The notes beneath the pieces are model-generated. The model made no database searches and was not told where the DNA came from. It was given only the letters and a program-made list of their open reading frames with translations. From positions 1-43,559 of the forward strand of contig JAEORS010000001.1 in the NCBI GenBank assembly GCA_016840795.1: a DNA stretch of 43,559 bases. The letters are read 5' to 3'. The stretch comes from Candidatus Thorarchaeota archaeon (lineage in GTDB: Archaea; Asgardarchaeota; Thorarchaeia; Thorarchaeales; Thorarchaeaceae). The translations under genes were made by a program, and so were the position numbers. Of this stretch, positions 1,561 through 41,036 are shown one piece after another (position 1 is the first letter of the stretch; each line of letters begins with the position of its first letter).

Positions 1561-1596
1561 GTTGCTGGAAATAATTGCATTTGAAAAAGCCTTCCC

Positions 1597-2490
1597 TCAG
1601 GCCTGAGAGTATGGCTTCATTCTTCGCAACACCTGTTCCTTGCTGGGAAGATTGTATGGACCAAGGGTTTCTACGTTGAATGATGAGCAAGCGGCTCCGA
1701 AGAGACCCGCGCGCCGTACATCACCGGTCCGCATGTACTCCAACAGGAATCCTATCGTGTAGCTGTCACCACATCCGGTCGAGTCTACCTGGGCATTAGC
1801 AAGTACTAGAGGAATGTCGACCTGAATATTGCGCGTGTATATCGTTGAGCCTCTCTTGTCACGCGTCACAACCACCATTCTAGGCCCTAAGGCAAGCAGC
1901 TCGGTGGCCGCCGAGAGTTCGGACTTGGCTTCCGCTGCAAGCTCGAGTTCGCTGTCGTCGAGCTTCACAACATCCGTCAGACTGATTACCTCATCACGGT
2001 CAGGCCACTCTCTCTCCACGACCTCTTCGCCCTTAACAGCCCTTAGATATCCCTGTGCATCAAGAGAAACCAGACCTCCGCTCGTTCTCGCAGCCTCAAT
2101 CATGGAAACGGGTATCTCGTCTGCTGTAAGTGGGCAGAAGTGGTATATGCTAGCCCCAAGGTACTTCGATTCTATGTCATCGATCTTCAGGGGAGGGGCC
2201 CTTGCCTCGAGTCGCTGTGTGCGCACTCCCTTCTCATCATACTCGTTGATAAAACGCGTGGATTTGCGACCTCTGTAATGTAGTCCCTCGATATCTAGAC
2301 CTGATTCTTGAAGAGTCTGAACATATTCCTCCTCGAAGTCAGTTCCTACGCAGCTTATGATTCCAGCCCCGAAGGCTTCAAGGCTCATAGCCAGCATTGC
2401 ATAGGCTGTACCACCTCCAAGAGCCTCCCTTGTAGTCTCTGGCGTGATTATGAGATCCCTGCTCAGATGACCAACAACCACAATCTCCAT
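1597..2490 (-). CDS. PfkB-family carbohydrate/nucleoside kinase
   Basis: 297-aa ORF with an N-terminal VVGHLSRD and GG dipeptide region and the C-terminal DSTGCGDSY anion-hole motif. Confidence 0.8.
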   Translation of the reverse strand: MEIVVVGHLSRDLIITPETTREALGGGTAYAMLAMSLEAFGAGIISCVGTDFEEEYVQTLQESGLDIEGLHYRGRKSTRFINEYDEKGVRTQRLEARAPPLKIDDIESKYLGASIYHFCPLTADEIPVSMIEAARTSGGLVSLDAQGYLRAVKGEEVVEREWPDRDEVISLTDVVKLDDSELELAAEAKSELSAATELLALGPRMVVVTRDKRGSTIYTRNIQVDIPLVLANAQVDSTGCGDSYTIGFLLEYMRTGDVRRAGLFGAACSSFNVETLGPYNLPSKEQVLRRMKPYSQA

Positions 2491-2632: not shown

Positions 2633-2923
2633 TTGACGATTTTGGCAACAGTCACCGTGAAGTTCTTCGCGACAGTTCGCGAGGCAGTCGGCAAGAGAAG
2701 CGCTGAGATGGAGGCTGCGAACATAAGAGAACTGTTGGAGCTTCTAAAGCGGACATATGGGAAACGCTTCACCGATACAGTGATTGACGAGGAGACTGGT
2801 GAGCTAAAAAGGTTCTACCAGTGTATGGTCAATGGAAAGCGCATCGAGCTTCTGGATGGCTACGAAACAGAACTGAACGATGACGACTCAGTGGCCCTTT
2901 TCCCTCCCGTCGGAGGAGGCTAG
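2633..2923 (+). CDS. MoaD/ThiS-family ubiquitin-like small protein (SAMP-like) with a C-terminal Gly-Gly
   Basis: 96 aa. It has the FFATVRE..G motif typical of MoaD and ends in FPPVGGG followed by a stop. TTG start. Confidence 0.7.
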   Translation: MTILATVTVKFFATVREAVGKRSAEMEAANIRELLELLKRTYGKRFTDTVIDEETGELKRFYQCMVNGKRIELLDGYETELNDDDSVALFPPVGGG

Positions 2924-2957
2924 ATGCCAGTTCATTCTCGAGAGAGGTGTGGTGCTG

Positions 2958-4316
2958 ATGGTTGATTTGGTAGTGAAGAATGCCCGGCTTCTACTAGAAT
3001 CAGGGCTTACGAGAGGAGGGATCGGGGTCGAGCAAGGTCGCATAAGCGTCATTGCGAGAGATGAGCATTTGCCAAAGGCTGATACTGTGGTTGATGCCGA
3101 GGGCAACATCTTGATGCCGGGTCTAATTGATGGACACGCACACATTCACGATCCAACTATGCTCGACCATGAGGATTTCACAACCGGTTCTCGCGCCGCT
3201 GCTGCGGGAGGTGTCACAACTGTCGTTGACATGCCTCTGACCAATCAGATCGATACTCCACAGGCTGTGGACGAACACATCAAGCAAGGAGAACAGATGT
3301 CCATTGTTGACTTCTCGTTCTACACAGGAATGCTGAACTCAGAGAACTACTCGATGATACCGTCAATGGTCGAAAGGGGAATCGCGGCCTTCAAGGCGTT
3401 TACGTGCGAACCTTATTTGACGCCTGATGGAGTACTAGTCCAGTCACTGAGTATGGTTTCCGAGTACGGCGGGCATGTGACGGTGCACTCAGAGAATCAG
3501 GGTGTCTTAGACGAGTTCAAGAAGGAGATGGAGGGAGAATGGGACGCTCCGATCAGTCACTCTCTTGCTAGGCCAAATCTTGCAGAACAGCTGGCAATAA
3601 GACAGATGGTGAGTATCGCAGAGCAGACCCAGGGTCACTTGCACGTAGCACATGTTACCACCAGCGAAGGTATAGTTGAGGTTGAACGCGGAAAGCTGAG
3701 AGGGGTGATGGCAACCACTGAAGTATGTCCTCATCATCTTGTCTTCCAAAGGGATGATATGAATCGACTTGGTCCTAAGAGCAAGATGAATCCACCACTC
3801 AGAGCCAAACAGGACAGGTCAGCTTTGTGGTCAGCCCTACTCAGAGGTACAATTGACATAACCGTAAGTGACCATGCACCGTGCCCGATAGAGAAGAAAG
3901 AAGCAGGAGCTGATGACATAAGAGAGGCGTGGTCAGGGGTCGACGGGGTCCAGATGATTCTAAGAGTCCTACTTTCAGAAGGAATCAACAGGGGCCGACT
4001 GTCTTTTGCAAGACTCCTCAACGTCGCATCACGTAATCCGGCCAAAATCTTTGGACTCTACCCGAGAAAGGGAGTTCTTCAAATCGGAGCCGACGCTGAT
4101 TTTGTCATAGTAGACCACACAAAGGAAGAGAAGATTAGTTCGGAGATAATGTTCTCCAAGTCTGGGTGGACACTCTACGAGGGCATGAATATGAAGGGAG
4201 TCCCTCTCAAGACTTTCGTGCGGGGCACGCTTGTCTTTGAGGCGGACAGGACTACAGTGAAGCCGGGTCATGGAAGATTCCAGTCCATGAGTGGCATGAA
4301 ACCATTTGAGGACTGA
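2958..4316 (+). CDS. Cyclic amidohydrolase (dihydroorotase/allantoinase/dihydropyrimidinase-hydantoinase family)
   Basis: Motifs PGLIDGHAHIHDP, GSRAAAAGGVTTVVDMP, AAFKAF (candidate carboxylated Lys), HSEN and VSDHAP. The start was trimmed to the ATG at MVDLVVKNARLL. Confidence 0.8.
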   Translation: MVDLVVKNARLLLESGLTRGGIGVEQGRISVIARDEHLPKADTVVDAEGNILMPGLIDGHAHIHDPTMLDHEDFTTGSRAAAAGGVTTVVDMPLTNQIDTPQAVDEHIKQGEQMSIVDFSFYTGMLNSENYSMIPSMVERGIAAFKAFTCEPYLTPDGVLVQSLSMVSEYGGHVTVHSENQGVLDEFKKEMEGEWDAPISHSLARPNLAEQLAIRQMVSIAEQTQGHLHVAHVTTSEGIVEVERGKLRGVMATTEVCPHHLVFQRDDMNRLGPKSKMNPPLRAKQDRSALWSALLRGTIDITVSDHAPCPIEKKEAGADDIREAWSGVDGVQMILRVLLSEGINRGRLSFARLLNVASRNPAKIFGLYPRKGVLQIGADADFVIVDHTKEEKISSEIMFSKSGWTLYEGMNMKGVPLKTFVRGTLVFEADRTTVKPGHGRFQSMSGMKPFED

Positions 4317-4319
4317 ACA

Positions 4320-4811
4320 ATGACGGTACGAGAGTTCGTCTTTGGAGACCCAGATGTATGCACCGGATGCATGATCTGTGTCAACGTTTGCAGCATGCAC
4401 TACTTCAAGGTAATAGGACCAGCATGGTCTCGTGCCAGGGTTATGAGGGTGGAGCCAGGACTTGACTTCCCTCTGTTCTGTCGTAACTGCGAAGATGCAC
4501 CTTGCATTGGCTCCTGTCCGGAAGAGGCGCTCAGCAGGACATCAAAGGGAGTCGTGATAGTGAACAACAAGAAGTGCCAGGGACACGGTGCCTGCATCGC
4601 TGCATGTCCATATGACGCAATCAAGCTGAATCCGGATACTCAGAAGGCTATCAAGTGTATTCAGTGCGGCAGATGCGTGGAACGATGCCCAGTCAACGCA
4701 ATCTGGATCACGACGGAAGAAGAACTCAAGGAGAAGGATTCAGACGGTAGGCTTGCTGGGCATTATGAAAGAAACAAAGAGGTCCTCTATAGCAAGGGGG
4801 GTATGTCATGA
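4320..4811 (+). CDS. 4Fe-4S dicluster ferredoxin-domain protein, probably the electron-transfer partner of AOR
   Basis: 163 aa with several Cys clusters (CTGCMICVNVC, CRNCEDAPCIGSCP, CQGHGACIAACP, CIQCGRCVERCP). Its stop overlaps the AOR start (ATGA). Confidence 0.8.
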   Translation: MTVREFVFGDPDVCTGCMICVNVCSMHYFKVIGPAWSRARVMRVEPGLDFPLFCRNCEDAPCIGSCPEEALSRTSKGVVIVNNKKCQGHGACIAACPYDAIKLNPDTQKAIKCIQCGRCVERCPVNAIWITTEEELKEKDSDGRLAGHYERNKEVLYSKGGMS

Positions 4812-12634: not shown

Positions 12635-13576
12635 ATGGTGAAACCGACGGTTGATGCCTTGGACATCGATCCAAAGACAGGGACCACACTGGGATTCTAC
12701 ACCTTTGGTCAGGAACGCCCAAACATCATGATTGTCTCTGGTATGAACGGCCTATCCGCGACCGATGTTTATGCCAACTATCTAACACTGAGGCATCTTC
12801 AGGATCTCGCTAGAATCAGCGGGTCAGTAACGCTACTCCCAGTTGCGGGCCCGCTCGCATTCAGACTTGGCACCAGAGTATCGCCATTAGACTCGAAGGA
12901 CCTAGATAGTGTCTTTCCTGGTGATGAGCACGGCACGATAACCCAGAGGGTTGCTTGGGAGATATGGCGAAGAGTGTCTCAGGCGGACGCAGTCATTCAT
13001 CTGAGAACGGGAACCCAAGCATGTATCAGTCACGTGGTGGCACTGCATCGCGAGTACATACACGTTAGGAATCTTGCTTCGCAGATTGCGTTACCAATCG
13101 TGGCCCAGAGCCTAGGGCAGAGAGGGGCACTCTCTACTGAGGCGGCCCATGAGGGTATTCCAATCGTCACCATAGAGGTAAGGGGTGATAGAAACAACAC
13201 AGACACTCAGGCGGCGGTAGAGGTCAGAGAGGCAATCCTAAACTACCTCAGAATAAGGGACATGATTGAAGGAGAAAGCATAGAGGCATCAAGTGTCTTC
13301 ACAGCAAGGATGCGACATGTCAATGCAGATGGCGAGGGCTTCTTCATTCCCAAAGTGCTACTAGGGGAAGAGATACGAAGCGGTGATGTCGTCGGTCAGA
13401 TTCAGGACAAGTCTGACGTCACCTGTCCCTTCGACGGGACTGTTGTTTCGTGTAGTCGGATGTCATACGTGTTTGAAGGGGACTTGATTGCGAGAGTGGC
13501 AACGCCTCTTGTTGACATGCCGCTAGATACCGAAATGAGTTCAGAAACACCGCCTCCTCCAAGAAGGAAGTGGTAG
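12635..13576 (+). CDS. Succinylglutamate desuccinylase/aspartoacylase (AstE/AspA, M14-like) family protein with degenerate metal ligands
   Basis: 313 aa. It has the family layout (IMIVSGMNGLS..., LLPVAGPLAF, LDSVFPG, C-terminal GDVVGQI barrel), but the usual GxHGxE reads GMNGLS. Confidence 0.6.
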   Translation: MVKPTVDALDIDPKTGTTLGFYTFGQERPNIMIVSGMNGLSATDVYANYLTLRHLQDLARISGSVTLLPVAGPLAFRLGTRVSPLDSKDLDSVFPGDEHGTITQRVAWEIWRRVSQADAVIHLRTGTQACISHVVALHREYIHVRNLASQIALPIVAQSLGQRGALSTEAAHEGIPIVTIEVRGDRNNTDTQAAVEVREAILNYLRIRDMIEGESIEASSVFTARMRHVNADGEGFFIPKVLLGEEIRSGDVVGQIQDKSDVTCPFDGTVVSCSRMSYVFEGDLIARVATPLVDMPLDTEMSSETPPPPRRKW

Positions 13577-13685
13577 TGGGCCGTTAGTGGATGGTGTCAA
13601 ATCCTCCATGTGCCTATCGTTCGAGCCTATTGTCTCATATGACAAGAAGGATCCAGTATCTCTCTAGGACCAGGGTAAGATTGGC

Positions 13686-14279
13686 TCAGTGCCCTTGCCT
13701 TCTGAGGACCGGAACCATAAAGCCGGCCTTCTTGCGATATTCTAGATACTCTTGGCCATATTGCAGCAGAAGCTTTCTCTCCTCCAGCCAGGCGCCGACC
13801 AAGACATAACCGATTAGTGACAACGCGAACACGAGTACGTTTGTAAACGGATAGACTGCAGCCATGCCCAAGAGAAGCAAAATGGTGGCAAGATAGAGCG
13901 GATGACGAATTCGTGAGTATATTCCGTCCGTCACAAGCTGTGGTCTTCTGTCAGTGCGCATGTCAGCCACAGTACTAACGGAAATTGCCTGTGAGGCCTT
14001 TGTAGATACTATGAGTCCCAATGCAATCAAGATGACGCCAGGAAACAGAAGAACTGGTTGTACTGCTTCAGGGTTGGTCAAGAAATATAGCCACCCCCAG
14101 AAGTTCATGCTGAAGAAAGCCAAGGCAACGGTAAGGATGCTCGAACCATTGAATAGCCTAGCGTATCCGACCTTGCCCCATCGATCGATGATTCTCCCTT
14201 TGACTCTCAAAGCAGAGAGCCCGCTGTGTTGTAGTCCAAATAGAAGGACTGAGACGATAATCAATAGTTGCTCAACCAA
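13686..14279 (-). CDS. Membrane methyltransferase of the ICMT/PEMT-like family
   Basis: 197 aa with multiple TM segments and the motif GIYSRIRHPLYLATILLLLG...EERKLLLQYGQEYLEYRKK. A GGAGG SD lies 7 nt upstream of the TTG start. Confidence 0.7.
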   Translation of the reverse strand: MVEQLLIIVSVLLFGLQHSGLSALRVKGRIIDRWGKVGYARLFNGSSILTVALAFFSMNFWGWLYFLTNPEAVQPVLLFPGVILIALGLIVSTKASQAISVSTVADMRTDRRPQLVTDGIYSRIRHPLYLATILLLLGMAAVYPFTNVLVFALSLIGYVLVGAWLEERKLLLQYGQEYLEYRKKAGFMVPVLRRQGH

Positions 14280-14367
14280 TGAATGTCCTCCTTATGCATT
14301 ACAGAAATCTTATAAGATTTGGAGATGCCTATTAACAATAGTTAATTTACGTCTTAAAAGCATTGAG

Positions 14368-14943
14368 ATGATTGACATGATCAAGAACCCATTTACGCCA
14401 ATAGTCCTCAGCGAGGACATAAAGGCCAAAGTGAAAGAAGAAGATGAGAAGAAAGAAGTTGATGCCAAGAGATACTGGATTCGATACAAGATAGGAGAAT
14501 CCAGTGACATTCGCTATGTCGATGGTGGAGAGGATGATATTGGCTCTGTGGAGGACAAGACAGTCTTCCTAGTTCCGTCAGTCCACAGAATGGAGGGCGA
14601 TCCCTTCCATTATGATGCGTCAACAACAGAGAGAGTCAGTGGGAGGGACCGCATTGATGCCGGAATCCAACTACTGAATCGGCATCCAGCCTGCGATTCT
14701 CATGAGATTGTAGAAGTGACTTATGAGAGTCCAGGAGTAGAGTGCTGTGCCATGACCAAGGAAGAAGCAGACAAACAGAAAGTGCCGATACAATACATTG
14801 CCGGATACCTTCTGGGCCGCTCGGATGGGCTGGTAAAGGTTGCTCTCTCAAAGACGGTCGTTGATGAATCCGACTACACCTACTTCGACAACATACGCAT
14901 CATTCCCGAAGCTGTGATTAAGGAACTGAATTGTCTAGAGTGA
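14368..14943 (+). CDS. Hypothetical protein
   Basis: 191 aa after trimming the 13954 ORF, whose 5' part is antisense to the methyltransferase gene. I recognised no motif. Confidence 0.5.
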   Translation: MIDMIKNPFTPIVLSEDIKAKVKEEDEKKEVDAKRYWIRYKIGESSDIRYVDGGEDDIGSVEDKTVFLVPSVHRMEGDPFHYDASTTERVSGRDRIDAGIQLLNRHPACDSHEIVEVTYESPGVECCAMTKEEADKQKVPIQYIAGYLLGRSDGLVKVALSKTVVDESDYTYFDNIRIIPEAVIKELNCLE

Positions 14944-15249: not shown

Positions 15250-16194
15250 ATGGCGAAACCAGTCCGCTCGATGACCGGCCGTGACAGGGGCACAAACGTA
15301 TGTGCAATATGTGGTGGCAATGACTTCTATCAGGACCTTGCTAGAGGAGAGAGTGTATGCACAACGTGTGGTTGTGTAATCAATGAGAGACATATCGATT
15401 CGGGCCCAGAATGGAGAGCATTCACTTCTGAGGAAAGAAATGCTAGGGCACGAACTGGCTCCCCGATGACCCTCACCATGGCTGACAAAGGGCTCGCAAC
15501 AACAATAGGCTGGAGTGACAGAGATGCCAACGGCAGAGCAATCGCTGCAAGTTCACGCGCCGCAATCTACCGGATGCGTAAGTGGCAGATTAGAACTCTT
15601 GTTCACAGCTCTCAGCACAGAAACCTGAGTATTGCAATGAGTGAGATGGATAGGCTCACATCCCAGCTGGGAGTGCCAAATGAAACCAAGGAAACAGCAG
15701 CCCTTGTCTATAGGAAGGCCCTTGCAAAACGCCTTGTCAGAGGGCGCAGCATCGAAGGAATGGAGGCCGCGACCATCTATTTGTCTTGTAGAATCCACAA
15801 GATACCCAGGCAGCTTGATGAGATAGTCGCCGAGGCTAGAGTTAACAGGAAGGAACTAGGTCAGTGTGTGAGGCTCATTCTACGACACGTTGACGTCAAG
15901 GTTCCAATTCCTTCGGCAAACGACCTTATGCCGAGAATATCCTCAGATCTGGGACTCGACGGTCAGACTGTCCAGACAGCAATGAGTATCATCAACGATG
16001 CTAGGAGAGAGGGGATAACGGCTGGCAAAGACCCCGGTGGTCTTGCAGCAGCAGCACTCTACATTGCTGGCATAATCACAAGCGACAGGCGGACACAGAG
16101 AGAGATTGCTGAGGCCTCAAACGTGACTGAGGTCACTGTGAGGAACAGATACAAGGACCTGGCCAATAGCCTGGAGATTACAATCAAACCGTAG
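15250..16194 (+). CDS. tfb: Transcription initiation factor IIB (TFB), paralog 1
   Basis: N-terminal Zn ribbon (CAICGG...CTTCGCV), B-reader/linker (DSGPEWRAF) and two cyclin repeats (RGRSIEGMEAATIYLSCR, GKDPGGLAAAALYIAG). Confidence 0.95.
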   Translation: MAKPVRSMTGRDRGTNVCAICGGNDFYQDLARGESVCTTCGCVINERHIDSGPEWRAFTSEERNARARTGSPMTLTMADKGLATTIGWSDRDANGRAIAASSRAAIYRMRKWQIRTLVHSSQHRNLSIAMSEMDRLTSQLGVPNETKETAALVYRKALAKRLVRGRSIEGMEAATIYLSCRIHKIPRQLDEIVAEARVNRKELGQCVRLILRHVDVKVPIPSANDLMPRISSDLGLDGQTVQTAMSIINDARREGITAGKDPGGLAAAALYIAGIITSDRRTQREIAEASNVTEVTVRNRYKDLANSLEITIKP

Positions 16195-16275: not shown

Positions 16276-17040
16276 ATGGACCAATTCTTGCTAGCCTTAT
16301 GTGGAATACCCGCCTCGGGCAAGTCGGCACTGGCTTCTGTCATTGTTGCGCGGTTGACGAAAGAAACGGACGTAGTGATTGTCAGCACAGATGACTGGCG
16401 CGACGACAAGTACTACGCGGAATTCAGCCCTGATAACGAGAAGAGAGTTAGACGGGCAGCGCTCGAGAAGACAGAGAAAGCGATTGGAGAAGGAAAATCC
16501 GTCATCCACGATGACACAAACTACTATACAAGCATGCGTCACGAACTCTATGAAATAACGGTGCGAAGAGGATGTAGCTTTGCCACTGTTCACATTTCGA
16601 CACCAGTGGATGATGCGCTCTCTAGGAACACAGAGAGAGGCTCCAACATTCCTGAAGAAGTCATCCTGAGAATCAATGAGAAACTCGACGTTCCGGGCGA
16701 CAGATACGCTTGGGACAGTCCGATAGCGACTGTAGACCTTGGGGCTCACACACTTGATGATGCAGCAGACGAGATTGTTGAGAGGTTGAAGACGCTGGAG
16801 CCAAGTTCAGAGATCCAAGAAACTCAAGATAGTGGTGCCCGGAGTAGACTGGTGGACGTTATCACAAGGCAGGTCGTGGCACGCTTTCTGCAGGAGAATC
16901 CCACTTACAGAAACGACCCGAGAGTCACGAAAGCAAGACGAGAGGCATTGGCAAGATCCAAGGCCGAAGGGCTCACACCTCACGAAACAGAACAGTCACT
17001 GGTGGAAGACTTGGGAGCTCTAGTGGAGGACGAGCGATAG
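16276..17040 (+). CDS. pstK: O-phosphoseryl-tRNA(Sec) kinase (PSTK)
   Basis: 254 aa with a P-loop (LCGIPASGKS) and the PSTK-characteristic DDTNYYTSMRHELY motif. It sits 18 nt from the tRNA-Sec 3' end. Confidence 0.85.
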   Translation: MDQFLLALCGIPASGKSALASVIVARLTKETDVVIVSTDDWRDDKYYAEFSPDNEKRVRRAALEKTEKAIGEGKSVIHDDTNYYTSMRHELYEITVRRGCSFATVHISTPVDDALSRNTERGSNIPEEVILRINEKLDVPGDRYAWDSPIATVDLGAHTLDDAADEIVERLKTLEPSSEIQETQDSGARSRLVDVITRQVVARFLQENPTYRNDPRVTKARREALARSKAEGLTPHETEQSLVEDLGALVEDER

Positions 17041-17058
17041 AGAGTGCAGCAAGAAGAA

Positions 17059-17149
17059 TGGCGGCCTCCTAAGAGAATCGAACTCTAATCGCTTGCACGA
17101 TCATGGGTTTGAAGCCCACGGAGCCGGACCACCGACCCAGTAGGAGGCC
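17059..17149 (-). tRNA. tRNA-Sec (anticodon UCA) with genome-encoded CCA
   Basis: Folded by hand. Acceptor GGCCUCCUA/UAGGAGGCC (9 bp); CU linker; D stem GGGUCGG/CCGGCUC (7 bp, includes G-U pairs) with loop UGGU; anticodon stem CGUGGG/CCCAUG (6 bp) with loop CUUCAAA; variable arm AUCGU-GCAA-GCGAU; T stem AGAG/CUCU (4 bp) with loop UUCGAUU; discriminator G; CCA. Confidence 0.9.
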
Positions 17150-17173
17150 ACAGACTCCTCATATCAGATCAGG

Positions 17174-17180
17174 ACTTAAG
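17174..17180 (-). promoter_or_regulatory. Weak TATA-like element (CTTAAGT) at -25 to -31 of tRNA-Sec
   Basis: The call rests on position relative to the mature 5' end only; the sequence is a poor TATA match. Confidence 0.2.
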
Positions 17181-17196
17181 CTTGAGGGTCGAGCGT

Positions 17197-17847
17197 CTAG
17201 AGATATCTGGCTATGACCTCTTGTGTTTCCTTCTTCCACTCTATGCTCTTCTTCGCCAACTCGGTGGCGATATTGCCAGGAAGAGGCTCCTCACGGGGCA
17301 TGGATTCAATCCGACTTAGCCAACCCGAGGTCGTAAGCGGAAGTGACATCATGTCCTCCCCCTCGATGGCCTTGATCATCATCTCCCTTCCATGAGCCAG
17401 CTGGAAATAGACCGCACCCAAGGATGCCTTATTAAGTATCTCGAACACAAGACGGTCCCAACAGGTCTTTGCGACTAGTGCACGTCTGAGTTTTCCCTTG
17501 ATATCGTCAGGCAAGGCCTGATACTTCTTTAGAGAGTTTCCTGTAGACGTAGTTATCTCATCAATGTATTTCTCAAGTGCCGCGGGGTCTTCGCCCAAGG
17601 CGGTGACTTCAACCATCTTCTGGGCCTCCTCAACCGAGACGCTTACGTCAACCTTGTTGCCATCAATCTTGGTCGAAAATACAGCCTTCCCCTCAAAGAT
17701 CTGACTCTCAGCTTCGCTGTATTCGTTCAGAAGGACGCCGGGCCGGGAAGCAACGGCGTACCAAACGAGTCTAAACACAACTGCAGACTCAGGGATGTCG
17801 TAACCGAGGGTCTTTTTGATCTCAGTTCTGTCACCAATCTCTGCCAA
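17197..17847 (-). CDS. Uncharacterised 216-aa protein encoded between SepSecS and tRNA-Sec
   Basis: The ORF has a strong GGGAGGG SD 8 nt upstream of a TTG start. It begins 32 nt after the spcS stop and ends 47 nt before tRNA-Sec. I recognised no family motif. Confidence 0.7.
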   Translation of the reverse strand: MAEIGDRTEIKKTLGYDIPESAVVFRLVWYAVASRPGVLLNEYSEAESQIFEGKAVFSTKIDGNKVDVSVSVEEAQKMVEVTALGEDPAALEKYIDEITTSTGNSLKKYQALPDDIKGKLRRALVAKTCWDRLVFEILNKASLGAVYFQLAHGREMMIKAIEGEDMMSLPLTTSGWLSRIESMPREEPLPGNIATELAKKSIEWKKETQEVIARYL

Positions 17848-17879
17848 GGTTTTAGCCCTCCCTACTGGCCAACCGTGAA

Positions 17880-19190
17880 TTAGCTACTGACCTCCTTATA
17901 GAGTTTGGCAGTAGCTGTTTCCACGTCTTTTCTTGACGCTCCAATGGCCGCGTTCATTACTATGTAGTCGTGCGGATAGTTGTCGATGCAGGAACCAAAT
18001 GCTCCTCTTTCCACCACACGGGGTCCTGTGACCCGCCGGCAATACAATCTGGCTCCTACCTCCTTTGCGGATAGGCCATCTAGAGTCATCGCACAGGCGA
18101 TTGCATTATCTACGGAAAGAACACGTTGCTTGACTGATTCGGCTATTTCTTCCATCTTGTTCTCCAAGAACTCCCTGTTTTCTCTCTGCTCTTCTCTCAG
18201 CTTTTCATATCCCTCTTGACCAATGGCTAGCATGGCGGCGAGTGTCTGGACCACTGGCGCGGCCGTTGCCCTGCCGGCGTAGGTTTCTGCAATCCATTCC
18301 TTGGTTTCGGATTCAGGAGTCACGACAATCGATGCGCCAACTGGTGAAAGGAAGTTCTTGTCGCTGCTCTGTACAATTGCATCAACTCTACCAGCATCTA
18401 TTGCGGAACGGATGGAGGACATTATGGCTTCTGATTGAACTCCATACGCGTTATTGATTATCAGAGGAATTGCGCTGTCGCTGCAAAGTCTGGAGATCTC
18501 TTTCAAGGGATCAGACAACCGGGGCGGAAAGAAGGTTGTTGTCGCCAATACTGCATACGATTCATTCTTCGATATACATCGTTCTAGCTCAGAGATGTCT
18601 GCTTGGACAGCATCACCCTCTAGAATCGTAGGTACTTGTACATGTTCAAGCCCGGCTAGTGCTATTGCACGAATGGGAGAAGCATGGTCAAGTCTCGGAT
18701 ACAGCACTCCTCGGACGCCCATTTCTCTCCGCAGGGCGCCCAGGACTAGGGCAATGCTCATTCCAGTCGCTAAGGGCAGCACAACGCCGTTTCGGACATT
18801 GCTCAGCCCCAGCTTCCTGATGGCGTCAACTGCCACTTGGTCCGCCACCTGCTGCATCAGTGACGTCCCGGGGGCCTTGGGCTGAGGGGCAGCAACATGG
18901 CCACTGCGACCGATTCCATGATTGAAACCGAAAGCCATCCGTTCGACAAAAGGGGATGCCACCCGTCCTTCTCGTTCCCCGACTCGTGCCGATTCTGGAT
19001 CCTTATCTGTGTCCATTGAGGACAAGAGTCTGAACAGAGTCTCCAACTGCAAGTCTGAGAAAGGCATCTTGGGGAATCTTCTGCGGTTCAGCAGGTCCCT
19101 AAGAGGAGCCAACAGTGCCTCAATAGTCACCCGTCCTCTCTCTGCCATGTTCGTTGGAATGATATCAAGCAGTCGATCTTCTATATCCAA
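17880..19190 (-). CDS. spcS: O-phosphoseryl-tRNA(Sec) selenium transferase (SepSecS)
   Basis: IPTNMAERG...FRLLSSMDTDKDP N-terminus and a PLP-lysine region, SSDKNFLSPVGASIV. The preferred start is the TTG at 19190, preceded by AGGAGG; the ORF could extend to the TTG at 19208. Confidence 0.9.
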   Translation of the reverse strand: MDIEDRLLDIIPTNMAERGRVTIEALLAPLRDLLNRRRFPKMPFSDLQLETLFRLLSSMDTDKDPESARVGEREGRVASPFVERMAFGFNHGIGRSGHVAAPQPKAPGTSLMQQVADQVAVDAIRKLGLSNVRNGVVLPLATGMSIALVLGALRREMGVRGVLYPRLDHASPIRAIALAGLEHVQVPTILEGDAVQADISELERCISKNESYAVLATTTFFPPRLSDPLKEISRLCSDSAIPLIINNAYGVQSEAIMSSIRSAIDAGRVDAIVQSSDKNFLSPVGASIVVTPESETKEWIAETYAGRATAAPVVQTLAAMLAIGQEGYEKLREEQRENREFLENKMEEIAESVKQRVLSVDNAIACAMTLDGLSAKEVGARLYCRRVTGPRVVERGAFGSCIDNYPHDYIVMNAAIGASRKDVETATAKLYKEVSS

Positions 19191-20571
19191 AGCTGAGTTC
19201 CTCCTCAACGAGTTTTTCGTAAATCACTTTGTCTGACTCCTTCACTGGGGCCTGGAAGACGCCGATTAGCACACCTCGAGTACCAAAGGGCCGCATAAGG
19301 GTTCCCCTGATGCCACTTGTAGTCTGTACAGGGGAACCTACAAACAACTCAGCGCGATCCTTGCTTGAGGCAATTCCTTCGACTAGTACATCGTCAGTAC
19401 GCACTCTGCCTATTCTTCCCATGCGAACTCTGCGTCTGTTCAACACAATCTTCGCTGGAGTTTCAATGACCTCCCCCGACCCAACTATCCTCATATGAGT
19501 AGGCGGCAGGTCGGTCCTCATTAAGATCACCTTCTGGCCTTCCTCAACTGCGATTTGGTTCTGGAATAGCAGGGCTGCCATGAATCCCGTTTCCTTTGCC
19601 TCATCCATGATGACCCTCCTATCTTCAGTGAAGGGCACAATTTCGGCGGTCACGTTCGGCATCCCCACCATTGTGCTTACAACCATCCTGTCCGTTATTC
19701 TCCCCTTGTACAATCGGTTTCTTTCCAGTTGGACTAGGACTCCTTTCCGGCTGACGAGAGCCCCTTGTTCAGACAAATAGTCACCGCGACTTATCTCGCT
19801 GTATTTCATGTCAGGAATGTTGACACCCACTCGGTCTCCAGCCTTCGCCTCAGGTAGGTTTTCCCCGAATGTCTGGATCGTTCTTACTCTCGCTTCTGCA
19901 TCCTGTGGCATCAGCCTCACTGTGTCCCCAGCGCGCAGAATCCCTCGTTGGATTGTGCCTGTGACCACTGTACCATGGCCCTTCACTGGAAATGCATGGT
20001 CAATAGGCATAAGAAATGAGCCATCGGTCAATCTCTTCTTCGGCCTAATCTTCTGGTTGAGGACCTCCTTCAGCTGGTCAATACCCTCTCCATTCTTGGC
20101 TGAGACTGCGACATATGCTGTGTCTTTGAACGCCGCCTCTTGAAGGACGGTACGTACCTTTTCTTGGACTGCCTTTAGGGCCTTGGGTTCAACTAAATCA
20201 CTCTTGGTTATCGCCACCACAATCGTATCAATCCCCAAGGACCGCAGCACGACAATGTGCTCTCCCGTCTGAATCTTGGGACCCTCGTCTGCGGCCACAA
20301 CAAGAATCGCTGCATCGATTATGTTTGCTCCTGCAACGACACTCCTAATCAAGTCTGCATGTCCCGGGGCATCTACCAGTGTCACACGCATTTTCCCAAG
20401 AGTGAACATCGTGAAGCCAAGGTCGATGGTTATTCCTCTCTCCTTAGCTTGCGGATGCTTGTCAAGGCCTGCAGTGGAAACTTTCTCACTCAATGCGCGG
20501 GCCAGCTCGGTCTTGCCATGATCAATGTGACCCACAAGGCCGACATGAACTGGAACGAGTTGCGTCATCAT
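19165..20571 (-). CDS. selB: Selenocysteine-specific elongation factor (archaeal SelB/aEFSec)
   Basis: 468 aa with GTPase motifs GHIDHGKT, DAPGH and TKSD. There are EF-Tu-like domains II and III and a short domain IV, with no bacterial winged-helix extension. Its 3' end overlaps spcS. Confidence 0.85.
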   Translation of the reverse strand: MMTQLVPVHVGLVGHIDHGKTELARALSEKVSTAGLDKHPQAKERGITIDLGFTMFTLGKMRVTLVDAPGHADLIRSVVAGANIIDAAILVVAADEGPKIQTGEHIVVLRSLGIDTIVVAITKSDLVEPKALKAVQEKVRTVLQEAAFKDTAYVAVSAKNGEGIDQLKEVLNQKIRPKKRLTDGSFLMPIDHAFPVKGHGTVVTGTIQRGILRAGDTVRLMPQDAEARVRTIQTFGENLPEAKAGDRVGVNIPDMKYSEISRGDYLSEQGALVSRKGVLVQLERNRLYKGRITDRMVVSTMVGMPNVTAEIVPFTEDRRVIMDEAKETGFMAALLFQNQIAVEEGQKVILMRTDLPPTHMRIVGSGEVIETPAKIVLNRRRVRMGRIGRVRTDDVLVEGIASSKDRAELFVGSPVQTTSGIRGTLMRPFGTRGVLIGVFQAPVKESDKVIYEKLVEEELSFGYRRSTA

Positions 20572-20602
20572 CCAACAGTCTTGGTCTTGCTCAGAACACC
20601 AG

Positions 20603-20608
20603 CTTAAA
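20603..20608 (-). promoter_or_regulatory. Candidate TATA box (TTTAAG on the minus strand) for the selB operon
   Basis: It lies about 32 nt upstream of the selB ATG in a 107-nt divergent spacer. A TTTATT box at about 20657 serves the opposite gene. Confidence 0.3.
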
Positions 20609-20678
20609 CCCTTCGCTATCGAGCTTGTTACGCTCCAACACTACGATTAGCGGGCTGTTTATTGGGCAGATTGCTGAG

Positions 20679-21098
20679 ATGAATCTCATGGTTTCAAGGT
20701 CTCTAGAGAAGATGCTTCTAGTTGCAATTGGTCTCTCAACTGCCGTGCTGATAGGTGTTCCAGTTCTCATGTACGCAATGGACACACTTGGAACTGCGTC
20801 TCAATTAGAGAGAGCAAGTCTATTCGCTGACAGAGTACATAACGTCACTGGAAGCGTGAACGACGGGCTAGCAAACAACATCGCGATCGAGATCCACGTG
20901 CCCGACGGCATAGTCATTGCCTCTGTTGGGACAACTCTCACGATTATGTTTGAGATGGAAGGCTTGGAAACCAGAACATGGAGTGTGGCCTATGATCACT
21001 CGATAGTCCTTGTTGGACCATCGGATTCTGGACCCTACATAATGCATGTTCAACTCGATTCCGGCACTATCGAGATTGCCTTTTCCTCCGTCATCTGA
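20679..21098 (+). CDS. Hypothetical N-terminally membrane-anchored protein (possible archaeal pilin/FlaF-G-like beta-sandwich)
   Basis: 139 aa after trimming the part antisense to selB. It starts MNLMVSRSLEKMLLVAIGLSTAVLIGVPVL and continues with beta-rich sequence. Confidence 0.45.
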   Translation: MNLMVSRSLEKMLLVAIGLSTAVLIGVPVLMYAMDTLGTASQLERASLFADRVHNVTGSVNDGLANNIAIEIHVPDGIVIASVGTTLTIMFEMEGLETRTWSVAYDHSIVLVGPSDSGPYIMHVQLDSGTIEIAFSSVI

Positions 21099-22663: not shown

Positions 22664-22918
22664 CTAATGGCCCCAACGGAGTCGCTCTGGCTTCGTGTCT
22701 TTCTTGAATTCCTTCTTAACAAGTTTCCAATGGTCAGAGCAGAGATAGACTTTCATTGAACGAGCGTCCTTTACCTGCAGACCTGTATTCGCGATGCTCT
22801 TGGTTATGCGTACTGTCGGGAAAGACCGCTTGGAATCGTTTTGACACCCAACAATGCTGCAGGTCTTCTTTGCTGACGACAACTTCCTCACTTCATCGAT
22901 GAGCGTACACGTGTACAT
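22664..22918 (-). CDS. Small C2CH zinc-finger protein with a basic C-terminus
   Basis: 84 aa with C20-X4-C25-X34-C60-X2-H63, followed by WKLVKKEFKKDTKPERLRWGH. Confidence 0.55.
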   Translation of the reverse strand: MYTCTLIDEVRKLSSAKKTCSIVGCQNDSKRSFPTVRITKSIANTGLQVKDARSMKVYLCSDHWKLVKKEFKKDTKPERLRWGH

Positions 22919-22944: not shown

Positions 22945-23943
22945 CTAGACATCACCTTTCGGAGTCAATAGTGGGCCTTCTGAGTAGTCAAACATGACCC
23001 GTTCTTCTGCGGACAATCTAAGCCTAAGTGACATCGTATTGTCCACCTCACCTACTTGGACCGCTGTAAGCCCGCACTCGCGCGCCACCTTCTCTACCAA
23101 GGGCACTTTCTCTGGATTCACTGCTACAAGGAATCCCAATGATACGTACATGCGAACCCAATCTTCGAGTATTATAGAGTTGGGACGAGCTGAGTCTACT
23201 GCATCAAGGTCGAGAAATCCTCCCTTCCCTGAGTATTCCAGTAGCATTCCGGCTGTGCCCACGAGTCCTGCAACTGAAACATCCTTGGCGGCGGTCACAA
23301 GATGCTTTTGAGCTAGTTTGATCATCACAGAGAGCCGTTCCACGACCTCGTTCGCAGATCGCTCAGTGACCGAGTCCCAACCTAACTTGTAACTGCCTCC
23401 GCGACGTCCTCGACTGTCGAAGAGCAGAATCAACACATCGTTGTCGCAAGCCCCACCGGCCGTCAGCATATTCTCTTTCTTGACCGTCCCTGTTGCAGAT
23501 CCAACAACATAGGTAGACGTGGACTGGGGATTCGTGTGGCCTCTAACTATGGGGACTCGAAAAGTATGAGACCCATCAATCAAACCCTCTAGAATCTGCT
23601 CGCCGATAGCGGAGTCATAGTATGAGATTGCCACAGCGAAGGAAGTAGGAGTGCCCCCTGCTGCATAGATGTCCATAACGGTTGCCAATACTGCATTGAA
23701 GCCGGCGGCTCGCGGATGGTTGAGGCATAGTTCCTCAACAATTGCGTCAGTCGTGAGTAGAACAATCTCATCGCTTGTTGTCAGAATTGCGGCCGAATCT
23801 TCACCAAGTCCGTGTTCTTGATTGCCATTGTAAGACGTTGCACGAAGACGTCCGATAATAGAAGGAAGAACGTACTTGCGGGAGATTCCCTCGAACTCGT
23901 GTAGGAGGGCAACAATCTCCTCTAAACGTGTCAAACAGAACAA
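22945..23943 (-). CDS. AIR-synthase-related (PurM superfamily) protein, selenophosphate-synthetase-related type, without a Sec/Cys-Lys loop
   Basis: 332 aa. GLGEDSAAIL...LLTTDAIVEE...AVLATVMDIYAAGGTP...RGHTN is the PurM/ThiL/HypE/SelD-type N-domain. TTG start. Confidence 0.65.
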   Translation of the reverse strand: MFCLTRLEEIVALLHEFEGISRKYVLPSIIGRLRATSYNGNQEHGLGEDSAAILTTSDEIVLLTTDAIVEELCLNHPRAAGFNAVLATVMDIYAAGGTPTSFAVAISYYDSAIGEQILEGLIDGSHTFRVPIVRGHTNPQSTSTYVVGSATGTVKKENMLTAGGACDNDVLILLFDSRGRRGGSYKLGWDSVTERSANEVVERLSVMIKLAQKHLVTAAKDVSVAGLVGTAGMLLEYSGKGGFLDLDAVDSARPNSIILEDWVRMYVSLGFLVAVNPEKVPLVEKVARECGLTAVQVGEVDNTMSLRLRLSAEERVMFDYSEGPLLTPKGDV

Positions 23944-32259: not shown

Positions 32260-33228
32260 CTAGGCAAGATTCATTGTGTCTATGCCCAGTTTCCGCACAA
32301 TCTCTTTGTATCTGTTGCGTACAGTTACCTCAGTGACTCGAGCCACCTCAGCAATCTCACGCTGTGTTCTTCTCTCATCCAACATTATGGACGCCACGTA
32401 AATGGCTGCAGCTGCCAGGCCAAGAGGATCGCGTCCTATTGTAAGACCTATGTCTCTGCTTCTTTTCAGTATCTCAACGGTCCTGAGCTGAACAGGACTA
32501 GATAGAGAAAGTTGAGAAGCGAAGCGAGAGATGTAGTCGATTGGGTTGCTAAGTGGAATCTTGATGGCCAATGACCGCAAGAGCAACCGATAGCACTGGC
32601 CGAGCTTCTTCTTGTCTACCCGGGAAGCGTCAGCCACCTCATCAAGAGGTCTGGGCTTCATCCGGATTCTGCAAGCGGCATAAAGGGTAGCTGCGACCAT
32701 AGCTTCTATGGACCGACCGCGAACAAGCTTCTTGATTATGGACTTCCTATAGAGAAGCGCGGATAACTCTCTTATCGGCTTTGGAATCCCTAGCTGGGAA
32801 GCGAGTCTCTCAAGCTCGGACATTGCCTGGGCCAAGTTTCGATCCATGGAGCTGTGAACTCGAGACCGGATTTGCCATTTGCGTAGTCGATAGATCTCCG
32901 ACCTTCTTGTGGGTGTCAGTTTGCGGCCGGATGTGTCCCGGTCGCGCCAGTCGATGACGGTAGAGAGACCCTTGTCGTGAACAGTGTATCTCAGTGGGGC
33001 ACCAACTCGGCTTCGCGCATCAGCCTCTTCAGAACTAAAGGCCCTCCATTCTGCACCGGAATCAATTCGGTGGTCGGATAGGACTAGGCCACAGCCACCA
33101 CAGACACGCTCTCCTCGCGTCAGGTCCTCGACCACAGAGTTTGAACCACACTCCGGACACATCTGTATCTCAGAGTCGACCTTAGCGATACTACTCCTCT
33201 CTGGAGCATCACCGCGCATATGATCCAA
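32260..33228 (-). CDS. tfb: Transcription initiation factor IIB (TFB), paralog 2
   Basis: CPECGS...CGGCGLV Zn ribbon, DSGAEWRAF, and two cyclin repeats. I estimate roughly half of the residues are identical to TFB-1. TTG start at 33228 (GGAGG 7 nt upstream) or ATG at 33219. Confidence 0.95.
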   Translation of the reverse strand: MDHMRGDAPERSSIAKVDSEIQMCPECGSNSVVEDLTRGERVCGGCGLVLSDHRIDSGAEWRAFSSEEADARSRVGAPLRYTVHDKGLSTVIDWRDRDTSGRKLTPTRRSEIYRLRKWQIRSRVHSSMDRNLAQAMSELERLASQLGIPKPIRELSALLYRKSIIKKLVRGRSIEAMVAATLYAACRIRMKPRPLDEVADASRVDKKKLGQCYRLLLRSLAIKIPLSNPIDYISRFASQLSLSSPVQLRTVEILKRSRDIGLTIGRDPLGLAAAAIYVASIMLDERRTQREIAEVARVTEVTVRNRYKEIVRKLGIDTMNLA

Positions 33229-34454: not shown

Positions 34455-34829
34455 TCATAGAATGCTAGCAATGCGCCTTGCGACTCTTGCCATCATAAAG
34501 AACATGTAGCCGATGTTCGCGCCCTTAGTTGTAAGAACTGCCAGAATAGATTCTTCTCCCGCGTCACAAATGATGACATAGCCGGACTCGCCTTCAATCA
34601 GCATTCTGGCAAAGGGTCCGCGCTTGAGTTGTTGGAAGACCTTTCGAGTTTCTGATTCTATCTGCGTGGCTCGACCAGCTATCACATCCTCCTCTGGTAC
34701 AACGGAAGGATCATGGTCTGGCGGAAAATGAGTGCAAATAGGGAGTCCTTGGGACCTCGAAATGATTACGCTCGCTTGAACATTGCCTTGGGAGGCTCTA
34801 CTCAGGTCTTCGAGGAGTTCAGTGAGCAT
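34455..34829 (-). CDS. Roadblock/LC7 (MglB-like) domain protein
   Basis: 124 aa from the internal ATG. It shows the pattern ..GNVQASVIISRSQGLPI.. ... ARMLIEGESGYVIICDAGEESILAVLT. Confidence 0.55.
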   Translation of the reverse strand: MLTELLEDLSRASQGNVQASVIISRSQGLPICTHFPPDHDPSVVPEEDVIAGRATQIESETRKVFQQLKRGPFARMLIEGESGYVIICDAGEESILAVLTTKGANIGYMFFMMARVARRIASIL

Positions 34830-34924
34830 TTCCGTCTTCGAGGACACTGTGAGTATTCCTCCGTTTCGAGGCCTTTCGGTGAAAAAGCATTCCCAAGTAT
34901 TTAAGGTTGCTTTCGACAGGTCCA

Positions 34925-35698
34925 CTAGACCCGCTTCGAACCCGCATCCTTCAGTGCCTTTACTATCTTCTTGAGACCAGCGCCTTTGTCTTTGTGGACA
35001 TTCTTCTCCAAGTATGTACCCTGGACCACAATGGATGCCCCTGCTTCAACACCGCGCACAACAGATTCAGCGTCATTGAAGCCGCCGCCGGCTATGATAG
35101 GCAAGTCGGAATATTGTGCAACTGTGGATATTGTTTCTGGAGGTACACCTCCGCCTTCGGCGCCGCTCCCAGCCTCAAGGTACACGAGCTTGTATCCGAG
35201 CAACTCAGCAGCCAGTGCGTACATCAACACCAGCTTGGGCTTCTCGCGCGGAAAGCATTTCGCCTCGCCAACCCAAGCTGCTGACTTGCCAGGCTCTATC
35301 AGTAGGTAGGCCATCGGGATTGTTTCTATTCCGGAGAACTTCACTCTCACAGCGGCGAGTGCCTGAGCCCCAATTATGTAATAGGGATTTGAGCTGTTGA
35401 GAAGACTCATGAAGAACATAGCATCAGCGTGTTCTGTGACTCCGGTGATATCGCCTGGAAAGAGTATCGTGGGAATGTCCACAGCCTCCCTTATCGCCTT
35501 CGCGGCATTATCGATGCTTCCGAAGACGGTACTGCCTCCAATCATGATGGCGTCAGTGCCGGCCTTCTCTGCTAATTCGGCAATGCCCACAATGTATTCA
35601 TTGCTCGCGCTCAGAGGGTCTGGGTCTAGCAGAGAGAAGTGACAAGCCCCTTCGCTCTCAAGCTTCTCAGTTATGTATTTCCACACTCTTCCAGTCAT
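34925..35698 (-). CDS. Geranylgeranylglyceryl phosphate synthase (GGGPS/PcrB family)
   Basis: HFSLLDPD, IMIGGST, LFPGD, YLEAGSGA and IIAGGGF motifs of the TIM-barrel GGGPS family. Confidence 0.85.
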   Translation of the reverse strand: MTGRVWKYITEKLESEGACHFSLLDPDPLSASNEYIVGIAELAEKAGTDAIMIGGSTVFGSIDNAAKAIREAVDIPTILFPGDITGVTEHADAMFFMSLLNSSNPYYIIGAQALAAVRVKFSGIETIPMAYLLIEPGKSAAWVGEAKCFPREKPKLVLMYALAAELLGYKLVYLEAGSGAEGGGVPPETISTVAQYSDLPIIAGGGFNDAESVVRGVEAGASIVVQGTYLEKNVHKDKGAGLKKIVKALKDAGSKRV

Positions 35699-40406: not shown

Positions 40407-41036
40407 ATGAACTGCATGGACCTAACCGTGGCTATCTTGGCAGGTGGTGACTCCTCACGCTTCAAGTCCAAAAAGAGTATGGCCAGGTTCAGGGGAAGAC
40501 CACTAATCTCACACATGATTGAAATCGCGGGTCAACTGTCAGACAATGTATTGGTTGTCGTTTCCAACGAGGCAGATAGTAGTGCCCTAAGAGAATCTGT
40601 CGAAGAAGCGATGTTGGTTGTAGATCCTGATGATTCGGTGAGATGTGCATTGACTGGAGCAATCACAGCATTCGAACATACAGACACTCGCTACACGCTT
40701 TTGTTGCCTGTAGATACTCCACTGGCAAATGTGCATCTCCTCAGGACCCTCTGTGATTTGCGAGAGGGACACGGAGCAGTTGTCCCTTCGTGGCCCTCTG
40801 GTTACATCGAGCCTCTTCACTCGGTCTATTTGTCAGAGCACGCATACTCTCAAGGTTTGGTTGTATCCAAGGCCGGCAGACACAGAATGAGAGATCTCCT
40901 TGATGGTCTATCAAACGTAATGTACGTTTCGACGATTGTACTCAAGGAGATTGATCCCGAGCTCACCACGTTCACAAACATCAACACGGAACCGGATCTT
41001 AGAGAGCTAGAGAAGAGCACAACTAGGGGAAGCTAG
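40407..41036 (+). CDS. mobA: Molybdenum cofactor guanylyltransferase (MobA-like)
   Basis: AILAGGDSSRF...GRPLISH N-terminal nucleotide-binding signature and LLLPVDTP. 209 aa. Confidence 0.75.
   Translation: MNCMDLTVAILAGGDSSRFKSKKSMARFRGRPLISHMIEIAGQLSDNVLVVVSNEADSSALRESVEEAMLVVDPDDSVRCALTGAITAFEHTDTRYTLLLPVDTPLANVHLLRTLCDLREGHGAVVPSWPSGYIEPLHSVYLSEHAYSQGLVVSKAGRHRMRDLLDGLSNVMYVSTIVLKEIDPELTTFTNINTEPDLRELEKSTTRGS

Follow-up and report, generated by a model that had tools for sequence, protein, structure and literature searches.

The window analysed here is the whole 43,559-nucleotide stretch of contig JAEORS010000001.1 from a Candidatus Thorarchaeota archaeon (assembly GCA_016840795.1). Its positions 16276–20571 carry a compact cluster for the decoding of selenocysteine (Sec), comprising pstK, which encodes the O-phosphoseryl-tRNA(Sec) kinase, and the genes for tRNA-Sec, the selenium transferase SepSecS (spcS) and the elongation factor SelB (selB), together with a gene for a protein of 216 amino acids. 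All five features had been placed in this interval by an earlier note made from the sequence alone, and they were recovered here from the open reading frame (ORF) list and by ARAGORN and Rfam (Table 1); the four known Sec components among them were also assigned by profile and structure-sequence searches. With a probability of roughly 93%, we read the region as the chromosomal cluster of Sec machinery genes in a member of the Thorarchaeia that belongs to the SMTZ1-83 lineage.

Table 1. Features of the Sec cluster and their positions in the window.
Feature	Position	Strand	Basis
pstK, O-phosphoseryl-tRNA(Sec) kinase, 254 aa	16276..17040	+	ORF list, PF08433, TIGR03574, 3a4l
tRNA-Sec (UCA), 87 nt plus encoded G73 and CCA	17059..17149	-	ARAGORN, Rfam RF01852
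216-aa Asgard-specific protein, NF045535 'putative selenocysteine system protein'	17197..17847	-	NCBIfam
spcS, SepSecS, 436 aa from TTG 19190	17880..19190	-	TIGR03531, PF05889, 2z67
selB, archaeal Sec-specific elongation factor, 468 aa	19165..20571	-	TIGR00475, PF21440, 4ac9
selB/spcS overlap, 26 nt; internal Shine-Dalgarno sequence GAGGAGG at 19206-19200	19165..19190	-	sequence
Divergent intergenic region, 116 nt, between selB and the 136-aa gene (presumed promoter of the selB-spcS-216 unit)	20572..20687	.	ENA contig gene calls, sequence

From the gene layout, selB, spcS and the 216-aa gene make up one closely spaced unit, encoded on the strand that also bears tRNA-Sec: the first two genes overlap by 26 nt, and intervals of 32 nt and 47 nt separate spcS from the 216-aa gene and the latter from tRNA-Sec. 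This packing suggests translational coupling and possibly co-transcription. On the opposite strand, pstK converges upon the unit, and its stop codon is separated from the CCA end of the tRNA by 18 nt (17041–17058), the distance given in the earlier note, provided that the encoded G73 and CCA are counted. The proposed TTG starts of spcS and of the 216-aa ORF are indeed preceded by strong Shine-Dalgarno (SD) sequences, GAGGAGG and GGGAGGG, respectively; the closest relative of the latter gene has ATG at the same position.

ARAGORN called a tRNA-SeC (tca) at 17063–17147 on the minus strand, and Rfam family RF01852 matched 17063–17149 on the same strand with 59.3 bits, above its gathering score of 47; the anticodon is UCA. 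The minimum free energy fold (z=-4.0) possesses an acceptor stem of 9 bp, a D stem of 7 bp with a 4-nt loop, an anticodon stem of 6 bp, a variable arm of 5 bp and a T stem of 4 bp. Among 44 distinct homologous tRNAs, all exactly 91 nt long and all with an encoded GCCA, 98.7% of the pair cells are canonical and compensatory double changes occur in 16 of the 31 pairs. This covariation supports the 9/4 fold, and the RNA is a tRNA-Sec of the archaeal/eukaryal 9/4 type.

The product of selB scores 273 bits against TIGR00475 (cutoff 242) and contains PF00009, PF03144 and PF21440 (aSelB_III, the archaeal domain III) matches. It aligns end-to-end with the archaeal SelB of PDB entry 4ac9 (residues 8–454 against 20–478, E=3e-95). 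The protein has the EF-Tu-like G domain and domain II as well as domains III and IV of archaeal SelB. Since only positions 2–324 of the 581 in TIGR00475, a profile of the bacterial type, are matched, it has no bacterial winged-helix extension of the kind that binds the selenocysteine insertion sequence (SECIS).

SepSecS was recognised by TIGR03531 (446 bits, cutoff 224.85), by PF05889 (388 bits, E=5e-116) and by comparison with the Methanocaldococcus jannaschii/Methanococcus maripaludis enzyme 2z67 (E=4e-99). A GIGRSG...PQPKA loop and an SSDKN motif align with, and are of the same type as, those of 2z67 and the human protein 4zdl; from the SepSecS structures we take the latter (S-x-DKN) to be the motif of the lysine binding pyridoxal phosphate (PLP), and the former to be the phosphate-binding loop. 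The spcS ORF spans 17880–19208 on the minus strand (442 aa) and offers three candidate starts, TTG 19208, TTG 19190 and ATG 19148, which would overlap selB, with its TGA stop at 19167–19165, by 44 nt, 26 nt and not at all, respectively, GAGGAGG lying ahead of TTG 19190; the 26–44 nt quoted previously are the values for the two TTG codons. Because the alignments to TIGR03531 (from residue 16 of the 442-aa ORF) and to 2z67 (from residue 8 of the 436-aa form) begin upstream of ATG 19148, translation should start upstream of this codon, and NCBI calls the 436-aa form, from TTG 19190. In nearly all of 63 related loci an SD-preceded spcS start overlaps, abuts or lies a few nucleotides from the selB stop codon; the start codon is mostly TTG and the commonest overlap is 11 nt. 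On the whole, the 26-nt overlap is most likely the true arrangement, and we infer that selB and spcS are probably translationally coupled.

The 254 amino acid kinase belongs to PF08433 (KTI12/PSTK; 113 bits against 22, E=1.9e-32), and its best NCBIfam match is TIGR03574 (E=1.4e-39, profile positions 1–230 of 249). Its score of 136 bits lies below the trusted cutoff of 290.5 for this model, and for that reason it is known in GenBank only as 'AAA family ATPase'. The name of the Pfam family, the low score and the GenBank label would all be compatible with a KTI12-like or other small-molecule P-loop kinase. We consider this highly improbable, since the only significant relatives among solved structures are PSTKs: M. 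jannaschii PSTK (3a4l/3adb) is matched at E=2e-26 over residues 3–229, that is at full length, including the C-terminal tRNA-binding half, while no other kinase with a solved structure falls below E=0.08 and a search extended to E<=10 brings up no structure of Kti12. The Walker A motif GIPASGKS, as well as DDTNYY and RNTERG, align between the two proteins and presumably have the functional roles described for the M. jannaschii enzyme. In addition, pstK lies next to tRNA-Sec at more than 50 loci, and the Sec-less loci considered below have lost it along with selB and spcS. Its identification as PSTK is supported by this context and by the structure-sequence comparison, and we regard the TIGR03574 shortfall as an annotation gap for Asgard PSTKs. 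The proposed SelB, SepSecS and PSTK memberships were thus all borne out by profile searches, that of PSTK with a score below the trusted cutoff.

As to the host, SelB is identical to KXH69751.1 and the 436-aa SepSecS to KXH69750.1, both from Candidatus Thorarchaeota archaeon SMTZ1-83. The window sequence is also present in two other records, an ENA contig of 90 kb and a JGI contig of 60 kb, and all close homologues of the 216-aa protein are in metagenome-assembled genomes (MAGs) of Thorarchaeota/Promethearchaeota. A synteny scan using one genome per species yielded 69 loci, nearly all labelled Thorarchaeota. Most share the order AIRS-family gene, small Zn-ribbon gene, helix-turn-helix gene, NapH-like Fer4_5 gene, 136-aa gene, selB, spcS, 216-aa gene, tRNA-Sec, convergent pstK and TFB, and the same order of the Sec genes recurs in more than 50 Thorarchaeia loci.

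Sec use in this class has been published. For Thorarchaeia, Sun et al. 2021 (PMC9723677) confirmed both tRNA-Sec and the route through PSTK and SepSecS, and a Sec system was described in Lokiarchaeota by Mariotti et al. 2016 (PMC4989117). According to Huang et al. 2024 (PMC11227280), 77.4% of Thorarchaeia genomes use Sec and more than 90% of the Sec-using Asgard archaea have a Sec-containing SelD; the same authors first noted the 216-aa protein, as a hypothetical protein beside secS, efSec and pstk, and reported that Asgard SECIS elements are eukaryote-like. The earlier note had presented Sec as a rare trait in Archaea, known from Methanococcales, Methanopyrus and some Asgard lineages; in Thorarchaeia its use is common and on record. 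NCBI names SelB 'selenocysteine-specific translation elongation factor', SepSecS 'O-phosphoseryl-tRNA(Sec) selenium transferase' and the cluster mate of the 216-aa protein 'putative selenocysteine system protein'. Since Thorarchaeia Sec use is published and three of the four proteins already bear such names, the locus is known and annotated and cannot count as a further example of a rare trait. Viewed as a Sec locus it contributes nothing new, GenBank already holding it with its main genes named.

The PSTK/SepSecS/archaeal SelB pathway is the standard archaeal and eukaryal route to Sec. In the window's organism, seryl-tRNA synthetase would load serine onto tRNA-Sec and PSTK would phosphorylate it to O-phosphoseryl-tRNA-Sec (Sep-tRNA-Sec). 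The PLP-dependent SepSecS would then swap the phosphate for selenium from selenophosphate, provided by a SelD encoded elsewhere in the genome. Finally, archaeal SelB with bound GTP would bring Sec-tRNA-Sec to UGA codons in mRNAs with a SECIS element in their 3'-untranslated region (3'-UTR).

The window was screened for SelD and for selenoprotein genes. No SelD is encoded in it, as had been stated previously: the only candidate, an AIRS-family protein (22945–23943, minus strand), reaches 38.9 bits against the TIGR00476 cutoff of 125. This protein was rejected as a cryptic SelD, having no G-U/C-x-C-K motif and an upstream in-frame TGA in an unrelated context; its best matches are to methan_mark_2 (methanogenesis marker 2) and the sll0787 family (227 bits, below the cutoff of 365), although the host is not a methanogen. 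In Thorarchaeia its gene always accompanies the Sec cluster, and it is retained in the Sec-less loci. Stop-to-stop frames with internal TGA codons were collected across the window and translated, and no credible selenoprotein gene was discovered among them. Two pairs, PfkB and an M24 peptidase (364–2490, minus strand) and an amidohydrolase and a 4Fe-4S ferredoxin (2880–4811, plus strand), proved to be independent genes in the same frame with TGA and a few codons between them, and the 57 codons that would extend the AIRS gene upstream were rejected because they lie in a non-conserved context. In agreement with the earlier note, no ORF pair is joined by TGA in a redox motif. Where a genome uses Sec, programs that predict selenoproteins could mistake the two same-frame pairs for read-through genes.

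HdrA and VhuD are often Sec-containing in the Asgard relatives. In the window, HdrA-MvhD is a single uninterrupted fused ORF of 839 aa (35896–38415, plus strand) of the HdrA2 type (1010 bits, below the cutoff of 1100); HdrC and HdrB come next (to 39815), and all are Cys forms. The earlier note had rightly called HdrA and MvhD uninterrupted Cys forms but had treated them as two proteins. The hypD gene (41033–42175) lies near the hdr genes. No methanogenesis genes were seen in the window, as the note had remarked.

Besides the kinase score and its GenBank label, several points weigh against the reading of the region as the working Sec cluster of an SMTZ1-83-lineage archaeon. No selD or selenoprotein gene was found in the window or in the 8.6 kb past its 3' end, which we walked in search of selD and hydrogenase selenoproteins and which hold only a ribosomal protein operon. 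Rfam gave no SECIS match in the window (E<=10) or downstream of selD at five selD loci, a result of little weight because Rfam has no Asgard SECIS model. The fold of the selD 3'-UTR is no better than that of shuffled sequence (z=-1.1). Since selD and selenoproteins are absent from the window and the adjoining 8.6 kb, use of the machinery by the window's organism rests on data for the SMTZ1-83 lineage. For Thorarchaeia GCA_001563325 the supplement of Huang et al. 2024 (PMC11227280) lists a Sec-containing SelD (entry GCA_001563325_U) and VhuU. This SelD has a match of 100% identity on contig SMTZ1_10030775 and on a 28-kb JGI contig, and the DNA reads ...CAT GGC TGA AGC TGT AAG..., i.e. HG-U-SCK with an in-frame TGA. 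GCA_001563325 is shown only as one of two 2016 Thorarchaeota assemblies; it is probably SMTZ1-83, and the SMTZ1 Sec-containing SelD probably belongs to the window's organism.

One might argue from the missing SelD and selenoprotein genes, and from the Cys form of HdrA-MvhD, that the cluster is a decaying Sec trait no longer used by this organism; Sec loss does happen within Thorarchaeia. This seems to us very improbable. All four protein genes are full-length with their catalytic motifs kept, and the tRNA-Sec scores well above threshold with every pair intact. The closest relative, locus L006 (CP070658), keeps all parts at 76–90% identity, and comparison with it gives a ratio of nonsynonymous to synonymous substitution rates (dN/dS) of 0.076 for the adjacent 216-aa gene. 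Furthermore, a genome with neither selenophosphate synthetase nor in-frame-TGA selenoprotein genes, which would have spoken for decay, is not what the record indicates, SelD with Sec and VhuU both being listed for the SMTZ1 Thorarchaeia. It is very likely that the Sec trait is live in the host lineage, the link to the window's organism being by sample and lineage only.

The protein that deserves further discussion is the one encoded between spcS and tRNA-Sec. It matches NF045535 (Sel_Asgard) with 231 bits (cutoff 132) over 192 of 195 profile positions. No Pfam family covers it; ten diverse members searched at E<=10 gave no recurrent family. Since an exhaustive HMMER search of 1.8 billion representatives retrieved only 20 relatives, the family is narrow and confined to Asgard archaea. 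A profile of mixed close and distant members matched only Thorarchaeia-type proteins, and one made from distant members alone found 15 proteins. The AlphaFold2 model (predicted local distance difference test score 93, predicted template modelling (TM) score 0.90) has an N-terminal domain of a strand, a helix, four strands and a long helix, and a C-terminal domain of four helices. The order of elements in the former suggests, on this model, a TBP-like domain. Foldseek gave no match in the PDB at E<=1e-3. The weak top hits were EagT6, the NRD-HEPN portion of RnlA, AlkA and the phosphohexomutase C-domain (TM<=0.33), and three of them (RnlA NRD, the AlkA N-domain and the phosphohexomutase C-domain) have TBP-like domains. 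A profile search of the family against PDB sequences yielded nothing, and a HEPN-like reading, from a conserved R-x4-K/R in place of R-x4-6-H, is only a lead and is without sequence support. Residues F25, A55, D131, R154-E155, L177 and W204-K205 are invariant throughout the family. C129 and H152 were considered as a selenium-handling site and discarded, as their invariance does not extend beyond Thorarchaeia. Taken as a whole, the protein is acidic (isoelectric point (pI) 5.1), with a mildly basic C-terminal domain (pI 8.4).

One proposal for this protein is that of a dedicated Asgard Sec component, either the missing factor linking eukaryote-like SECIS elements to archaeal SelB, functionally analogous to SBP2, or a scaffold for tRNA-Sec maturation. 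Its gene lies beside Sec genes in more than 50 Thorarchaeia loci, on the strand of spcS and tRNA-Sec and close to both, and this arrangement is kept in a deep relative with 40% identity as well. Its family bears a Sec name, and the protein was flagged by Huang et al. 2024. There is also an open slot, as the window's SelB has no bacterial-type extension and Asgard archaea have no SBP2 (PMC11227280, PMC4989117). The N-terminal domain has its strands and helices in the order usual for TBP-like domains, a class with many nucleic-acid binders, and the C-terminal domain is mildly basic. On balance we nevertheless think this proposal rather unlikely.

At seven Thorarchaeia loci (L007, L009, L020, L035, L048, L053 and L062; MAGs JBHLRV01, JBHIAE01, JAGXOC01, SOKL01, JBHLRZ01, DAOVDG01 and JAWAQK01, in no stated order) selB, spcS and pstK were not detected at E<1e-8. 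Remnants are visible at L053, where a SelB stub of 102 aa is fused next to a SepSecS stub of 117 aa and part of PSTK is also left, and at L048 (a SelB fragment). tRNA-Sec relics with broken pairs persist at L020 (37.6 bits) and L048 (46.0 bits), both under the Rfam threshold of 47, and none was found at the other five loci (L007, L009, L035, L053 and L062). The 216-aa homologue is intact in all seven, as a full-length ORF of 210–216 aa. The family-invariant residues are unchanged in four of the copies, while those of L035, L053 and L062 have conservative substitutions at one to four positions. Although selB, spcS and pstK are deleted or decayed, the gene is under purifying selection, and strongly so in pairs within Sec-less clades, with dN/dS of 0.096 for L007-L009 (dS 0.28) and 0.056 for L035-L048; the pair L053-L050 gives 0.21.

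The distant homologues lead in the same direction. They show 20–30% identity to the window's protein and match NF045535 with E-values between 1e-31 and 1e-41, and two exceed its cutoff. Eight such loci from at least five lineages, including Odinarchaeia, were examined (besides those of Odinarchaeia, the MAGs with distant homologues include GCA_053940065, GCA_964589775, GCA_016840065, GCA_016840135, GCA_048939465 and GCA_048939365), and no Sec gene was found within up to 10 kb of the homologue, or less at contig ends. Odinarchaeia are reported to have neither tRNA-Sec nor Sec use (PMC11227280, PMC9723677). With the Thorarchaeia cluster these loci all share old neighbours, namely the NapH-like Fer4_5 protein, a 71-aa (70–72) Zn-ribbon protein with its homologue at 22664–22918 of the window, TFB, an AstE-like protein, LeuRS, the tRNA-splicing endonuclease EndA, a PhoU-like protein and BacA. 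The simplest reading is that the 216-aa gene is part of an old Asgard syntenic block which in Thorarchaeia has Sec genes on both sides. This small, lysine-rich protein with Cys and His residues (70–84 aa; CS..GC ... C.EHYK ... KW[RK].G), encoded on the minus strand of the window, is found in all Thorarchaeia loci at a distance of some 2 kb upstream of selB, directly adjoins distant 216-aa homologues (L077 10695–10910, L082, L084, L085, L086, L081) and may be a conserved partner of the family. Locus L075 (GCA_053940065.1) carries a complete archaeal 16S rRNA gene (13204–14705, minus strand) 2.6 kb from a 27%-identical homologue.

Because the gene outlives Sec loss and its homologues occur in Sec-free contexts, the idea of a dedicated Sec factor is weakened, and a protein independent of Sec, or at least not exclusive to it, is in our judgement more likely than an obligatory Sec factor. 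To the evidence against a dedicated factor may be added the lack of conservation of C129 and H152, the only Cys and His invariant in Thorarchaeia, in the wider family, the acidity of the protein as a whole and the absence of significant structural or sequence similarity to any RNA-binding protein. Two considerations count on the other side: the Sec genes of the Sec-less loci might have been relocated rather than lost, and the distant lineages may use Sec with genes placed elsewhere. The narrower proposal, that the protein is the missing archaeal SECIS-UGA adaptor, working through its TBP-like N-domain and basic helical C-domain, we judge decidedly unlikely; were it true, persistence in Sec-less lineages would reflect an additional, broader function in translation or in the handling of tRNA.

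Among the neighbouring genes, a mechanical 201-aa ORF (20493–21098, plus strand) overlaps the selB start; the called gene is the 136-aa one from ATG 20688 (20688–21098, plus strand). Its product begins with a hydrophobic stretch (MNLMVSRSLEKMLLVAIGLSTAVLIG...), which hints at a pilin-like or membrane protein, and a family search for it was negative. Two paralogues of TFB (TFIIB) are encoded less than 17 kb apart, at 15250–16194 (plus strand) and 32260–33228 (minus strand). The former is the invariant downstream neighbour of pstK, with 77–97% identity across Thorarchaeia loci, and within its coding region (15379–15433, plus strand) there is a weak match to the C/D-box small RNA sR47 (21.6 bits against 40, E=0.63) that is probably due to chance. 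A Roadblock/LC7 protein (34455–34925, minus strand) is a eukaryotic-signature protein typical of Asgard archaea, and its gene block (radical SAM, M24, SUI1, Robl and PcrB) is also kept in the distant-homologue loci L075 and L083.

In comparison with known systems, the 216-aa ORF is above the cutoff of NF045535, whose name implies a Sec role; members and near-members of this family, however, occur in loci deleted for Sec genes and in Sec-free contexts, so the name may overstate the link to selenocysteine. In comparative data the family behaves as if its gene had been in place before the Sec genes were inserted beside it and stayed when they were lost, a reason for caution in using it as a Sec marker. 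With eukaryotic SBP2 and the winged-helix part of bacterial SelB the protein shares only an open functional slot: archaea have no known SECIS-binding factor, and the 216-aa protein was suggested as a candidate (PMC11227280). It differs from both in lacking L7Ae and winged-helix domains, in resembling them neither in sequence nor in fold, and in a distribution that does not strictly track Sec. The comparative data make the published suggestion of a Sec factor less likely and narrow the search for the factor that recognises SECIS in archaea.

In methanogens the Sec genes are generally dispersed, whereas in the window they are clustered. The Methanococcales and Methanopyrus proteins (3a4l, 2z67, 4ac9) are the same enzymes, with a four-domain archaeal SelB and a 9/4 tRNA-Sec with a long D stem, but identity to the window's proteins is roughly 30–45%, Asgard SECIS elements are reported to be eukaryote-like, and the window is without methanogenesis genes. 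The Sec loci of Thorarchaeia and other Asgard archaea are alike in gene order, in the PSTK/SepSecS route and in having SelD encoded elsewhere. Closest of all is the SMTZ1-83 locus (KXH69748-KXH69751), in which SelB and the 436-aa SepSecS are 100% identical to those of the window, while for PSTK and the 216-aa protein the two loci share 90% clusters; nothing material distinguishes them, and the window represents the same population, or one almost identical to it, in a further assembly.

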